Part shown: positions 26,665 through 32,543 of the stretch, one piece after another
Numbering within the stretch: the stretch's first letter is position 1
Layout of the letters: the number at the start of each line of letters is the position of its first letter
DNA from: a virus
Lineage: Duplodnaviria; Caudoviricetes
IMG/VR virus record: IMGVR_UViG_3300013382_000007
Coordinates: 32,001 to 96,000 of that record
Direction: 5' to 3' (one strand)
DNA length: 64,000 nucleotides
Program-made: the position numbers and the translations under genes
The notes under the pieces: generated by a model
Databases searched by the model: none
What the model was told of the DNA's origin: nothing
Seen by the model: the letters and a program-made list of their open reading frames with translations, nothing else

Positions 26665-26699
26665 CGTTAATTTTGGAAAAATTGAGGAGGAGCCAATTA

Positions 26700-29636
26700 A
26701 TGGCACAAACAACTTCCATTTTCTTTCAGGATGAATTACTCCCTGGTGTATTAACCGAGATCCAGCAGGATTATAATTATGGTTATTATACTACTACTTG
26801 GGGCACCACGTCATCAGTACTTGTTTTAGGTACTGCATTTACTGGCCCTCTTAATAAGGTTGTAAAGATTTATAGTCCTGAACACGCACTCTTTGTTTTT
26901 GGTAATACATATGATTCTGCTAATCATAAAGAGGCTTCACTTGTTACTGGTATCCAGGATGTATATGATAAAGGATGCAGATCCATTTATGCTTGCCGTA
27001 TAGCCGGTAAGGATATTTATAAGGATTTCGAGCTTGCTCCAAACCTTGGTTACAAGCTCCGTGTATCTGGTGCATATCCGTCTAATGAGTGCAAGGATAT
27101 GTATATCAGATTCGTAAATGATGGTATTCACCTTAAACTGATTTATTATAAGCCAGCTGATAGATCCACTATCTATGAGAAGATGAATGGTGTCGTCGAT
27201 TCTGCTGATTCTATGATTGAAACTGTTCTTGATCTTAGTGGCACTTGGGGTTATACTTCTGAGACTAAGATTTCTGAACTTATCAATCTCTTTAATACAT
27301 ATAGAACCAATAATGTTTTAAGACTCAGTATTGTTAAGGATGGCGTAGATGTTACTTCTACTGATCCTGAGGCTCAGAATCTTCCTATCGCTTCTATCTT
27401 CAGCGGTATGTACTTTATAGGCAGAGATAAGAATCTGTGCGATGCATTTACCCTCGTAGATGATAAGCTTGCAGAAACTGATAATCTTTGGAAGAAGCGC
27501 ACAAATGTCAATACCTTCAGAGTGCTTAAGATAAATACTGATATCAACGCATCGTATCCTATCGCTGGTGAATATGATGCACTCAGAAATATCTTTACTG
27601 CTGTTACTACTACTTCAACATTTGACTTTGTTGATAATGTGGCTAATATCGATCTCCTTTATGGTAAGGATGATACTGATTATGAGCAGGTAGATATCTC
27701 TGGTTTTGATCTCTATAAGGCTCTTGGTTCAGGTTTTGCTACTACGGCTCATATTGAACTTAAGAATCCTGATATCCAGAATCCTACTGAAAAGGACTAT
27801 GTAGTTAAGGAAACTGGTGAAGATAATACAAATAGAATTGTAGCTATCTCTGATGGTCTCTATTCTATGCTTCAGAATGTTCCTACCGATTATAGAGTTC
27901 TTGCACATTCTTCTGCTATTGAAAGTATGGATACAAAGCTTCCGAGTAAAAAGGAATTCCTTACTAAGGTTGCTGGCGACATTCAGTTTATTAAGACTGA
28001 TGACGACAAGAAAGCAATTAGAATCACTCCTATAGTTAACGATGATACTGATATCTCTGATACCAATAAGTTTTCGTTTGACCTGTCTATAGTCGCTGAT
28101 GATACTATTGTTCCTGTAGAGACCAAAGATTGTGCTGCTACTCATACTGCTAAGGCAATTGCAGTTGTAACTGATAATTCTGCTGATAGCATCAAAGGTA
28201 TCAAAGATGGCGAAACCTTTGCTATCAAGACTGAAGATTCTTATGATATCTTCCTCATGAGAAATGGTACTCAAGTTTCAATTGACGGTATGAAGTCTGT
28301 CTTTGATGGTGAGTACTTCTTCGATGTAGAAAATGGTAAGATTCTTAAGGTTACCTATTCAGAAAACCAGACTGCTCCTGCAAAGACATATGCTGTTACT
28401 GCTATGGACTATTCTACTTATACTGCTGATTCAATCAGTGATGGCGGCAAAGCAAACTTCCTTGTTTCTCTTGATAATAATACTTTCGTAGCTAAATATG
28501 ATGAAACATCTAACAAGGCTGACATTATTGGTTCTATTGATCAGGTTCTTACTTCTGATGCTTCTGGTATTTATGTAATCCCTGCTCTTCACAATAGTGG
28601 CAATACTCATAAGATTATTATCACTGAGGATTATGCAAGCGCTAATACTTATGAGTCGTTTATGCACGACTTAGAGTCTGCTCTTGGCAAATCTTTTACA
28701 TTTGAATATGCAGAGAATTTTGAGTCCTATAAAAATGAATATCTTAATAGCGATGCAGCTACATTAAATAATCAGACTACTGTTGCTGGGTTATTTGCAA
28801 AGCAAGTATTTGATACTACTAAGTATATTCCTTATAAGACTACTGACAATCTTGCTAGACAGCTTGCACAGCATTGCACATATACTTCTATCAAGACTGG
28901 TTCTACTCATGGTATTATTGGTTATCGTAAGATAAGCGATACTTCTATTACCGGTATTGCTAAAGTCGTTGATCAGGCATGCAAGACTGACTTTGACTTA
29001 TATGCTAAGAGACCTAATGGCAAGTATATGCTTGACAAGGATAGTTCTCCATATAATATTGGCAAGAATATCTCCATGACATTTGGCTGCTACTATGTAA
29101 CCACTGCTGATGGTTATAAGTATGTTTCTAATGGCGCTGGTGGATATGCTGGTATGATTTCTGCTCTTTCTATAGATCAGTCTTCTACTAATCAGCCAAT
29201 CGATATTGACGAGCTTCCATTTGAATTAACTAATTATCAGCTTGAGAATCTTACCAACGCTGGATTTGTTACATTCAAGAATTCTTATACTAAGGGCACT
29301 GTTGTTACTGATGGTATCACGATGGCACCTAATACTTCTGCATTTAAGAGACTTAGCACCACAAGGATTACCGGTTTCATTGAGACCTTAATTCGTAGTG
29401 CATGTGAGCCATTTATTGGTCGTCAAAATAACCTTGCAAATCGTAATTCTATTAAGACTGCTGTTAACTCCGCACTCTATAAGATTATGGGTACTCTGAT
29501 CAAGGATTTTGATTTCACAATCACCTCTGATCTTTCTCAGCAGAAGCTTGGCATAATCGATATCGATTATGTAATCGTTCCTTATTATGAGATTCGTCAG
29601 ATCCGTAATAGAATCACTATTAAGGATTCTATATAA
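26700..29636 (+). CDS. Tail sheath protein
   Basis: ATG 26700 after GAGGAGG; LPGVLTE, GTAFTGPLN, YAGMIS..STNQ, VTDGIT, EPFIGR, VPYYEIRQI contractile-sheath motifs; large central insertion. Confidence 0.9.
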   Translation: MAQTTSIFFQDELLPGVLTEIQQDYNYGYYTTTWGTTSSVLVLGTAFTGPLNKVVKIYSPEHALFVFGNTYDSANHKEASLVTGIQDVYDKGCRSIYACRIAGKDIYKDFELAPNLGYKLRVSGAYPSNECKDMYIRFVNDGIHLKLIYYKPADRSTIYEKMNGVVDSADSMIETVLDLSGTWGYTSETKISELINLFNTYRTNNVLRLSIVKDGVDVTSTDPEAQNLPIASIFSGMYFIGRDKNLCDAFTLVDDKLAETDNLWKKRTNVNTFRVLKINTDINASYPIAGEYDALRNIFTAVTTTSTFDFVDNVANIDLLYGKDDTDYEQVDISGFDLYKALGSGFATTAHIELKNPDIQNPTEKDYVVKETGEDNTNRIVAISDGLYSMLQNVPTDYRVLAHSSAIESMDTKLPSKKEFLTKVAGDIQFIKTDDDKKAIRITPIVNDDTDISDTNKFSFDLSIVADDTIVPVETKDCAATHTAKAIAVVTDNSADSIKGIKDGETFAIKTEDSYDIFLMRNGTQVSIDGMKSVFDGEYFFDVENGKILKVTYSENQTAPAKTYAVTAMDYSTYTADSISDGGKANFLVSLDNNTFVAKYDETSNKADIIGSIDQVLTSDASGIYVIPALHNSGNTHKIIITEDYASANTYESFMHDLESALGKSFTFEYAENFESYKNEYLNSDAATLNNQTTVAGLFAKQVFDTTKYIPYKTTDNLARQLAQHCTYTSIKTGSTHGIIGYRKISDTSITGIAKVVDQACKTDFDLYAKRPNGKYMLDKDSSPYNIGKNISMTFGCYYVTTADGYKYVSNGAGGYAGMISALSIDQSSTNQPIDIDELPFELTNYQLENLTNAGFVTFKNSYTKGTVVTDGITMAPNTSAFKRLSTTRITGFIETLIRSACEPFIGRQNNLANRNSIKTAVNSALYKIMGTLIKDFDFTITSDLSQQKLGIIDIDYVIVPYYEIRQIRNRITIKDSI

Positions 29637-29657: not shown

Positions 29658-29786
29658 ATGAACGATAATACTTCAGTTGAAAAATATACAGAAACTTATA
29701 CTTCTTTTAGCGGCGCTGATATCGTAGCTTCATTCAATGGAGTTGTGATTGGTGAGCTTCAGGGTATAACGTATTCAGTTTCAAGA
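29658..29786 (+). CDS. Major tail tube protein, exon 1 (not in ORF track)
   Basis: GAGGT RBS; MNDNTSVEKYTETYTSFSGADIVASFNGVVIGELQGITYSVSR is homologous to the start of the paralog at 30858 (TYTSFSGADMVA...LQTISYS). Confidence 0.88.
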
Positions 29787-30181
29787 GAAACGAAGTAAAA
29801 ATATTTACTTCACAAACTTCTCCGTGTATACAGTAATGTATGCAGGACACGACCTTAAAACCAGTAATCGCTAAAACTTTGTTACTACAATAAGAGATAG
29901 AATCAGAAACTCTTATGAATGTGAAGAAATTCGGAAACAACAACAAAGATTGTATATGATGAGAATCTAAGTACATAAAATGCGTGTTTGGTCTCCAAGT
30001 CAGAAATGATATGGTCAAACGACTATGGATTGAAAAATCCGTAAAGCTGCAAGCTATTGGCAGAAGAAATGGGTCGCCCCTAATAGGTAATGCTAAGGGT
30101 GAAGAAATAGTCTACTCACATCTTAATTGGATGTGCAGCCAATATGGCGTAATAAGATTAGCGATCTTATTAGAATATAAG
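29787..30181 (+). ncRNA. ORF-less group I intron in the tail tube gene, 395 nt (junction can slide by 0-4 nt)
   Basis: P2 UGUAUAC/GUAUGCA; P3 CGACCU/GGGUCG; P4 ACCAG/UUGGU; P6 CCA..UCAGAAAUGA..UGG; R GUCAAACGACUA; P7.1 and P7.2; S AAGAAAUAGUCU ~30102; P9 hairpins; removal restores YSVSR|EKAPIYTLG in register with the paralogs. Confidence 0.85.
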
Positions 30182-30742
30182 GAAAAAGCTCCGATCTACA
30201 CGCTCGGTTCCCCAGAACCTCGTTCCTTCTCTAGAGGAAAAAGAGGCATAGCTGGTACTCTCGTATTCACTATGTTTAACCGTGATGCTCTTCTCGAAGA
30301 GTTCAAGGCTCATAACCAGATGAATAAACTCCAGAAATTCAAAGGCAATGTTTCAAGTACAGACATTGGCGGCTATACTCCATATACATCTATTGATGAA
30401 TGGGATAGAGCAATGACCAATGGCACATACAGCAATGATGGTTCTTCTACTGTCCAGACTACTGGTGATCTTGTAGATAAGAATGCAGATGCTGCATATG
30501 CTGATGAAATTCTGCCGTTCGATATTACAATTACTTTTGCTAATGAGTATGGTCAGAATGCAGTTGCTACTATCTATGGTGTTGAGCTTCTTAACGAAGG
30601 CTCTGGATTCTCCATTGATACAGTTTCTGCTGAAAAGGCTTATACATTCATTGCACGCAGAATCAGCTATATGAAGAAGGATGACGGTACTACCGAACTC
30701 TCTAACTCTCATAAGCTCTCTGGTGCATCTTACGCAGAGTAA
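30182..30742 (+). CDS. Major tail tube protein, exon 2 (spliced product ~229 aa)
   Basis: EKAPIYTLG..RGKRGIAGTLVF...DEILPFDITITFANEYG...IYGVELLNEG...YTFIAR; directly after the sheath gene. Confidence 0.88.
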   Translation, partial: EKAPIYTLGSPEPRSFSRGKRGIAGTLVFTMFNRDALLEEFKAHNQMNKLQKFKGNVSSTDIGGYTPYTSIDEWDRAMTNGTYSNDGSSTVQTTGDLVDKNADAAYADEILPFDITITFANEYGQNAVATIYGVELLNEGSGFSIDTVSAEKAYTFIARRISYMKKDDGTTELSNSHKLSGASYAE

Positions 30743-30755
30743 TTTTAAATAGGTT

Positions 30756-30785
30756 AAATGGGGTCGCAAATGCGACTCCATTTTT
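30756..30785 (+). terminator. Intrinsic terminator after the tail tube gene
   Basis: AAATGGGGTCGC-AAAT-GCGACTCCATTTTT. Confidence 0.8.
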
Positions 30786-30808
30786 GTTTATTATAAAGTA
30801 TGCTATTG

Positions 30809-30857: not shown

Positions 30858-32543
30858 ATGTCCCAATTAGAAAATATCACACAAACTTATACGTCATTCA
30901 GTGGTGCTGACATGGTTGCTGTGTGTAATATCTTAGGTGAAGACGTTGTTTTAGGAACACTCCAGACAATCAGTTATTCACTTCATATGGAGAGAAATGC
31001 TGTAAGGTCTATTGGTAATATCAATGCAAAAGACTATACTCAAGGCCCACGTACAATAGCAGGCTCTCTTGTTTTTGCTGTTTTTGATAAGCATGTACTT
31101 TATCATATGGCAGAAGCATTTAAATACAACAATAAGTATAAAGATAATAAATATACTCAGCTATATGGTAAGTATAAATCCTTTACTAATAATAGACATG
31201 TATTAGCTGATGAATTGCCGCCATTCAATGTCACAATAACATTTGCAAATGAATATGGTAATAGATCCAAGCTTGCTATATATGGTATCAGATTATTGAA
31301 TGAAGGACAGGTTATGTCTGTCAGCGATCTTTATACCGAAAATACTTATCAGTTTGTCGCGCTTGATATTGACTATCTTTATTCTGGTGATCCACAATTA
31401 AATTATGAAGATGATGACGAATCAGAGGAAATAAAAACTCCTCAGATTAATACATCAAAGAATTATAAGTCTGATGATAGTATAGTTATTGAGCATATAA
31501 ATCATGATTATACAAACAGTCTTAGTTTGATCAATATATCAAAAAAGAGCCTAGACGAAAACGCAAAATTAAATGGCGGTATATTATATGTAAAGCAGGC
31601 GTTGTTAAGCGACGCCCAATGGCACGAATATCCCATACCAAAAAATAATACAAATACGTATCGAGAAACCTTACGCCTTGAAAATGGTGTATATAATGCT
31701 TATTTCATTGAATCTGAAACAGATTTAAAAAGCAATGAAATAACAATAAACATTCATGATGAGGTCAGAGCATTCAAACCGATAATCGAAAATACTATAT
31801 ATCGTAATGGAGAATTATACCTAAAATTCAAGCTCTTCAGTGCATTATACTTTGGACATACAACACTTAATCTTCGCGATTCATCTAAAACAAGAATTAA
31901 GAGTTATGCAATCGATGAAAATTATAATGCATATATTCCATTCTCGGATTTGAAAGATAGCAATAAATATTATCTAGATACAAGTCGCAAAGATAAAGAT
32001 TATAGTTCACTCGAAACATATACTGCTTCACATATATTCGAATTAAACTTCTCTGCTGAGATATTCGATATAATTCAATTTATTCAAAATCATTGGATAC
32101 AAGAATATGAAAGTGAATTATTAATGGTGATAAAAGAATTCTATAATAATCAATCTACATTCTTTTATTCGGCTTGTACCATGATGATTAAATCGCAATC
32201 ATATGCAGACAATGACAGATTCTATTATACATTTTTAAATCGTATATGTGATCTTGAAAATGAATATTTGCAATTAATAAATGGAGAGAATTTCTTACCT
32301 CCAGACAAAACAGACGCAAATGAAATTTATTATCTATCATGTCTCGGTACAGCATATGAAACTAAGAAAGATATAATTGTATCTAATCTGAATCAGATGG
32401 TTGAGTTTGGCGAAGATCCCAAATTCTATAATGTTCCAAGCATTACAAACAATAAACGGTCATACGCTTATTATTATTGTATGATTAACAGATCCACAAA
32501 AGCACTGTCAACTATATTAGGAGGTATCAGACAATATGAATAA
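30858..32543 (+). CDS. Tail tube-like protein 2 with C-terminal extension
   Basis: N-terminal ~175 aa are paralogous to the tube (SFSGAD, GPRTIAGSLVF, DELPPFNVTITFANEYG, YGIRLLNEG). Confidence 0.85.
   Translation: MSQLENITQTYTSFSGADMVAVCNILGEDVVLGTLQTISYSLHMERNAVRSIGNINAKDYTQGPRTIAGSLVFAVFDKHVLYHMAEAFKYNNKYKDNKYTQLYGKYKSFTNNRHVLADELPPFNVTITFANEYGNRSKLAIYGIRLLNEGQVMSVSDLYTENTYQFVALDIDYLYSGDPQLNYEDDDESEEIKTPQINTSKNYKSDDSIVIEHINHDYTNSLSLINISKKSLDENAKLNGGILYVKQALLSDAQWHEYPIPKNNTNTYRETLRLENGVYNAYFIESETDLKSNEITINIHDEVRAFKPIIENTIYRNGELYLKFKLFSALYFGHTTLNLRDSSKTRIKSYAIDENYNAYIPFSDLKDSNKYYLDTSRKDKDYSSLETYTASHIFELNFSAEIFDIIQFIQNHWIQEYESELLMVIKEFYNNQSTFFYSACTMMIKSQSYADNDRFYYTFLNRICDLENEYLQLINGENFLPPDKTDANEIYYLSCLGTAYETKKDIIVSNLNQMVEFGEDPKFYNVPSITNNKRSYAYYYCMINRSTKALSTILGGIRQYE

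Follow-up and report, generated by a model that had tools for sequence, protein, structure and literature searches.

An ORF-less group I intron in a probable phage tail tube gene, with a predicted 5' splice site after a G paired with C

The split gene downstream of the tail sheath gene

The window analysed here, a stretch of 64,000 nucleotides (nt) from a Caudoviricetes virus (IMG/VR record IMGVR_UViG_3300013382_000007, positions 32,001 to 96,000), carries a tail sheath gene, a 987-amino-acid ORF at 26673-29636 (phrog_16991, E 2e-57), and directly downstream of it a gene that lies in two pieces. In the ORF list, the first piece is held by a short ORF (29658-29798) that ends at a TAA stop (29796-98), and the second is the downstream portion of ORF 29984-30742; once joined, the two give a spliced ORF of 229 codons, encoding 229 residues. 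We are close to certain that the interval between them is a real intron, and from its sequence we assign it to the ORF-less group I introns of the IA2 type (features and coordinates are collected in Table 1). No ORF of any size was listed inside 29788-30182, in agreement with the initial annotation of this locus.

The size of the interruption follows from two sets of sequences. Proteins of about 220 amino acids that are homologous to the translation of about 30185-30742 number in the thousands, and among the matches listed in a protein homologue search 120 contain ITYSVSREKAP[IV]Y without interruption, as do all 13 of the full-length homologues examined. In the window this peptide is divided, with ...ITYSVSRE read from the short ORF and (E)KAPIY from the second. 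The initial annotation had restored the reading YSVSREKAPIY on the strength of a paralog, and more than 100 uninterrupted homologues (YSVSREKAP[IV]Y) now bear it out. It had also proposed a comparison with intron-less alleles, and one such allele, L120, comes from another metagenome and shares 74% protein identity with the window gene; in an alignment it matches window positions 29739-29787 and 30183-30229 base for base, that is, exon 1 and exon 2 minus exactly 395 nt. Taken together, the homologues and the L120 alignment mean that exactly 395 nt must be removed, the very number claimed in the initial annotation.

Since GAA is present at both junctions (29787-89 and 30182-84), four cuts yield an identical mRNA, with the 5' exon ending in A29786, G29787, A29788 or A29789, and none of these four bases is a U. 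A terminal G is possible for two of the cuts only, namely A29786 (with G30181) and G29787 (with G30182), so that G30182 or G30181 is consistent with the 395-nt removal. The statement that the 5' exon must end in A29786 or G29787 if the intron ends in G, and never in U, is thereby confirmed by the L120 alignment and the GAA repeats.

The split gene is likely a tail tube gene. It lies directly 3' of the sheath gene, and a search of the ESM Atlas, a language-model lead, pointed to the PF26461 Phi812_tail_tube and DUF2001 clusters. PHROGs labels its family 'major head protein' (phrog_9206), the product gave no match in Pfam or, by sequence and by profile, in the PDB, and its AlphaFold model was poor and unreliable (pLDDT 47). 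Gene order and the language-model lead are thus on the side of the tail tube label first given to this gene, and the family searches supplied no match to back it. Directly past its stop, at 30761-30795, a G+C-rich hairpin with a stem of 8 bp leads into a run of T and, by eye, resembles an intrinsic terminator. The N-terminal part of the next gene (30858-32543, 561 aa) is a paralogue of the tube-like protein, with 43% identity over about 180 aa and membership in the same PHROG family; it is followed by a 380-aa extension without a family match, and the gene may encode a second tube-like or tube-initiator protein.

Within its own 114-kb record the intron is single-copy. BLAST of INPHARED phages with the locus and with the intron gave no match, and a related-locus search of IMG/VR with the exon 2 protein gave no confirmed locus. 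The gene caller behind the cluster of a close relative (P0001) began the gene inside the intron (MCSQYGV...), the same mis-start that had been noted in the ORF track of the window.

The group I core and its family

The complete group I core described in the initial annotation stands because of comparative structure, not because of an Rfam match. Against RF00028 the intron scored 16.2 bits (E 0.17), below the gathering score of 50; at the gathering threshold Rfam found nothing in the whole window, and at E 0.01 it found no group I hit in seven relatives of the intron. Though weak, the Rfam alignment sets the J8/7-P7-P9 motif in the correct place. We aligned 14 family introns with short P1 loops, the window intron included (alignment A1), and obtained a consensus fold of 55 pairs, 37 of which show compensatory changes on both sides. 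P2, P3, P4-P6, P7.2, P8 and P9 are common to all 14 introns; P3 surrounds the P4-P6 domain, and the two strands of P7 lie on either side of P3' and P8. Across A1 the J8/7-P7 motif shows no variation, and all of the family-invariant core motifs are present in the window intron; P7, being invariant, shows no covariation and is placed solely by its position and by the Rfam alignment. The hallmarks of the IA2 type, P7.1/P7.2 and an extended P9 with P9.1/P9.2, can be read in the sequence, and the assignment to this type was made by the IA2 description in PMC4227781.

Table 1. Features of the split gene and its intron (window positions; the slash marks the proposed cut)
Feature	Position	Strand	Basis or remark
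Exon 1 of the probable tail tube gene (43 codons and the first base of Glu44)	29658..29787	+	ORF list; L120 alignment; homologues
Group I intron, 395 nt, ORF-less, best call	29788..30182	+	shifts of -1, +1 and +2 leave the mRNA unchanged
P1 5' strand GAG/AA, proposed cut after G29787	29785..29789	+	pairs with 29818-22; register from 14 relatives
8-bp hairpin in P1 loop	29792..29811	+	location of the endonuclease ORF in L001 and L051
Internal guide UUCUC	29818..29822	+	C29822-C29820 pair with the 5' exon
Guide U29819 and U29818		+	partners: intron +1/+2 (P1) or exon 2 A30183/A30184 (P10)
P2 hairpin	29825..29844	+	compensatory changes against L001 and family-wide
P3 5' strand	29850..29855	+	six pairs with 30071-30076, four changed on both sides
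P4-P5-P6 domain	29860..30015	+	consensus helices, covariation
P7 5' strand GACUAU	30021..30026	+	pairs with 30107-30112; family-invariant; Rfam alignment
P7.1 (30027-40) and P7.2 (30047-63), IA2-type extra hairpins	30027..30063	+	sequence reading; P7.2 covaries
P3 3' strand	30071..30076	+	covariation, consensus fold
P8 hairpin	30078..30099	+	covariation, consensus fold
J8/7 and P7 3' strand	30100..30112	+	conserved 17-mer starts at 30098
P9 (30117-35), P9.1 (30138-48) and P9.2 (30150-72)	30117..30172	+	sequence reading; P9 covaries
Terminal (omega) G, best call	30182	+	family rule
Exon 2 of the probable tail tube gene, stop included	30183..30742	+	ORF list; homologues; L120 alignment

The 17-mer of the J8/7-P7 core motif occurs at more than 113 loci in IMG/VR, and the family is therefore common in uncultured phages; an nhmmer search of those loci with the window intron as query gave about 70 matches. 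The A1 introns are spread over roughly a dozen insertion sites in other phage genes, and the genes that host family introns include tube, tape measure, capsid-like and terminase genes. A sister intron at the same insertion site in a related phage (L001), whose P2 differs from that of the window intron by two compensatory pairs, carries a 316-aa LAGLIDADG-type ORF in its P1 loop, with faint Pfam LAGLIDADG matches and a match to the phrog_4645 endonuclease (E 5.8e-41). L051 likewise carries a LAGLIDADG endonuclease ORF in the P1 loop; no homing endonuclease is encoded in the window intron.

Occupancy within single genes varies among the relatives. At L100 (9360-10172) a single tape measure gene contains two sister introns separated by only 43 nt, each with a GAG/AAAC 5' junction, and L044 has just the first of the two. 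One function-unassigned gene bears up to three family introns in L098 and L062, two related phages that differ in which sites are occupied, making them a natural set of intron-plus and intron-minus alleles. In Staphylococcus phage phiIPLA-RODI, a Kayvirus (L117, 1509-2113), the family profile matched two partial intron-like copies, which adjoin a short annotated 'tail tube' CDS on its 3' side; the tube gene of this phage may be interrupted and under-annotated.

Position of the 5' splice site

As the initial annotation had reported, GAGAA (29785-89) can pair with UUCUC (29818-22) with zero wobble pairs, and a U-G wobble with U as the last 5' exon base is absent from the window intron. To place this pairing in the family, we named the guide bases x4 to x1 and their exon partners e1 to e4 and tabulated P1 for the 14 introns of A1. 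In all 14, the 5' exon end pairs with the four guide bases directly 5' of a conserved 'CG' and P2, and the pairs e1.x1 and e2.x2 covary across insertion sites (GC, AT, CG, UA), which identifies the pairing as P1. Every one of the 14 has G-C at e3.x3, and e2 is variable (A, G, U, C), unlike the conserved e3. The fourth base, e4, is U or A and forms U-G, U-A or A-U with x4, or else is unpaired (A/G). If the cut follows e3, x4 finds a partner in the opening base of exon 2 in 13 of the 14 introns, as expected of P10. A more distant clade (L013 and L092) has C-G replacing G-C at e3.x3; were the cut position the same there, the last exon base would be a C, a known rare exception.

For eight introns at six insertion sites the mRNA is known without recourse to a splice rule: that of the window is fixed by L120; those of L098 and L062, which lie in the same gene, by each being intron-free at the other's site; those of L044, L100 and L116 by tape measure genes with reciprocal intron-free sites; and those of L104 and L103 by a capsid-like gene whose length is set by an SPbeta-type homologue. 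All eight can end in G if the 5' exon stops at the e3 G, and for L062, L104 and L103 this cut is the sole solution with a terminal G. Cutting one base later, after e4, would demand terminal A, A, A, A, A, U, U, C and C. The terminase intron L040 makes a discriminating test, since a canonical in-frame choice of U(-1) and omega G is also available there. Its homologues in Lysinibacillus phage LC76P1 (...GVKKQAKLII...) and Thomasclavelia phage TR-TP1 (...KLSQAGLII...) both fit only the G(-1) junction, ...GTKG/QAKLIV..., and the canonical alternative would lose the Gln.

For six of the 14 introns of A1 the 3' end was itself picked as an in-frame G, so that an omega G in 14 of 14 is partly so by construction, and the argument is borne by L040 and the eight fixed introns only. 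In L067 the G set as the 3' end is out of frame; the G that is in frame under the G(-1) rule lies one base earlier and is not paired with x4, and a canonical U(-1) reading is also open to this intron. A scan of ORF continuity over all possible 3' ends gave no discrimination, because every third position is in frame.

This comparison supports a real atypical rule, as the initial annotation had proposed, in which the cut would follow a conserved G paired with C. Applied to the window, it makes it probable that exon 1 ends at G29787, paired with C29820, and that the intron runs from 29788 to 30182 with G30182 as its omega G; the interval first assigned, 29787-30181, would most likely have to be moved one base to the right. 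The main rival is a cut one base earlier that gives the same mRNA, with A29786 (paired with U29821) as the exon end, an intron of 29787-30181 and G30181 as the omega G. It is formally allowed by the GG doublet at 30181-82, since the intron would still end in a G (G30181) and ligation would give an unchanged product, and a GG doublet in L098 and in GAG-type relatives likewise permits the same choice. We nonetheless consider this cut unlikely: the base preceding the terminal G is C in L062, A in L104 and L103 and U in L040, so that a rule set one base earlier would end those introns in a non-G, and the exon base that is conserved is e3, whereas e2 varies.

With the cut after G29787, the intron would most likely leave the tail tube mRNA by self-splicing through two transesterifications, as is usual. 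The Watson-Crick pair of G29787 with C29820 would take the place of the standard U-G wobble, and A29788, the first intron base, would pair with U29819. Free guanosine would attack after G29787, and G30182 would then occupy the G site. A30183/A30184 of exon 2 would displace A29788/A29789 on U29819/U29818, forming P10, and ligation would restore AGA-GAA-AAA (Arg-Glu-Lys).

We also considered that the ribozyme may have decayed or may be unable to splice alone, in which case the gene would be a pseudogene or would need a protein helper. The weak Rfam score is a point in favour of this reading, and in public reads just one RNA-library contig covers the 5' junction, and it is unspliced in type. That contig runs from exon 1 into the intron and belongs to a relative present in library X1 as short contigs only, all of the unspliced type; no joint across the intron was seen among them, a result that is uninformative on splicing either way. 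This reading is made very improbable by several observations: both exons are intact and 98% identical to those of P0001, which carries the same intron; the family-invariant core motifs are all kept; a variant about 95% identical in another study retains the intron, and among the differences listed between the two none falls in P1 or P2; and the ORF list holds no other full tube gene in this phage, just the 561-aa paralogue.

Least credible is a canonical cut after U29796 in the upper hairpin (GAAGU) with the intron ending at G30188, which is in frame in both the window and L001, the hairpin of L001 even having a U-G there, and which would give a product one residue longer, ...SRETKSPIY: SREKAP is what L120 and all 13 of the full-length homologues examined show, the hairpin is a variable insert in the P1 loop, at the place where L001 and L051 have their endonuclease ORF, and is missing in relatives such as L044, the U of the window faces A29807 and so makes no wobble, and the family guide is located directly 5' of 'CG' and P2, not there. 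A canonical cut after U29780/81, the junction that the initial annotation had named as the case against its own reading, is rejected on the homologue sequences.

Relation to IStrons and to other phage introns

To our knowledge, the U-G wobble at the 5' splice site is regarded as invariant, and the IS607-type IStron ribozyme is the sole documented exception to date. A group B IStron is a group I ribozyme joined at its 3' side to an IS607-family element (TnpA/TnpB). In these elements, which include BcISt1 of Bacillus cereus and CbISt/CboIStron of C. botulinum and its phages, the 5' exon ends in G, and the U of the U-G pair is an intron base; splicing after G was shown by experiment for BcISt1, and all group B IStrons insert after G (PMC4227781). 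Tourasse, Stabell and Kolsto (2014) called for functional studies of site selection (PMC4227781). CboIStron inserts after TGGG and self-splices both in vitro and in E. coli (bioRxiv 10.1101/2023.11.20.567912). The near-universality of U-G invoked in the initial annotation thus has a published exception, and the window intron, which does lack U(-1) as was said, is not the first of its kind (PMC4227781).

The A1 profile, window intron included, matches the IStron ribozyme of C. botulinum phage D-1873 with an E value of 6.5e-42, and an L104-type intron is 70% identical over 83% of the length to the IStron ribozyme of D-1873 and of phage c-st. The profile match to D-1873 places the window intron in the same ribozyme lineage, and the G(-1) rule would therefore be inherited rather than unique. 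In the D-1873 element a transposase gene follows the ribozyme; past this gene, at the 3' end of the element, lies a RAGATH-18 RNA (L119, 4300-4369; 61.7 bits). Group B IStrons and the window intron are alike in their homologous IA2-type core, in a 5' exon and an intron that both end in G (for the window, as predicted), and in that a U, if there is any, is the first intron base and not the last exon base. Only the ribozyme is common to the two, as the window intron lacks a transposase, TnpB and omega-RNA, and it is ORF-less with sisters that carry a LAGLIDADG homing endonuclease in the P1 loop. Group B IStrons, moreover, keep a U-G pair shifted by one, whereas the +1 base of the window intron is predicted to be an A paired with U, leaving no U-G in P1.

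The T4 td and Staphylococcus phage Twort orf142-I2 introns, the latter with a crystal structure, are phage IA2 introns that are cut after a U in a U-G wobble with the guide. They resemble the window intron in a helix plan with P7.1/P7.2 and P9.1/P9.2, in the loop motif of the last hairpin, which is similar, and in lying in phage genes with an optional endonuclease ORF in a peripheral loop; they differ in the cut, which in the family of the window intron would come after a G in a G-C pair. Prophages of the Bacillus cereus group have group I introns in tape measure, terminase and tail tube genes (Tourasse and Kolsto 2008, PMC2504315), which by their description resemble the window intron in occupying the same classes of structural genes, in being partly of the IA2 type and in having a site-adapted P1.

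Set beside the IStron papers, several elements of this picture appear to be new. Neither the use of the G(-1) rule by ordinary phage introns, whether ORF-less or with a homing endonuclease, nor an invariant G-C pair at -1 is found in those papers, and both are suggested here by sequence comparison. The GAG/AAAC subgroup, to which the window intron belongs, also appears new in having an A at +1 and, as predicted, no U-G pair at all; a shifted wobble cannot be the determinant of the site there.

Introns of this kind would readily escape notice. A 2025 group I intron database demands U at -1, and 16,427 model hits were dropped for want of it (PMC11835236), a filter by which G(-1) introns are systematically discarded. 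Annotation pipelines will likewise miss such introns or misplace their boundaries, as happened in the window gene. On balance we lean towards the view that a large clade of ordinary phage group I introns has swapped the U-G at the 5' splice site for a conserved G-C whose G is the last exon base, with some members having no P1 wobble whatsoever, and that the cleavage site would then be set by other features. If this is true, candidate determinants are the fixed distance to the hinge formed by 'CG' and P2, and the conserved AA at intron positions +2/+3. We know of no worked-out structural rationale for a G-C pair at a group I cleavage site. The family offers natural variation with which the question of site choice could be approached, since the pair at -1 is always G-C and that at +1 is U-G, U-A, A-U or mismatched.
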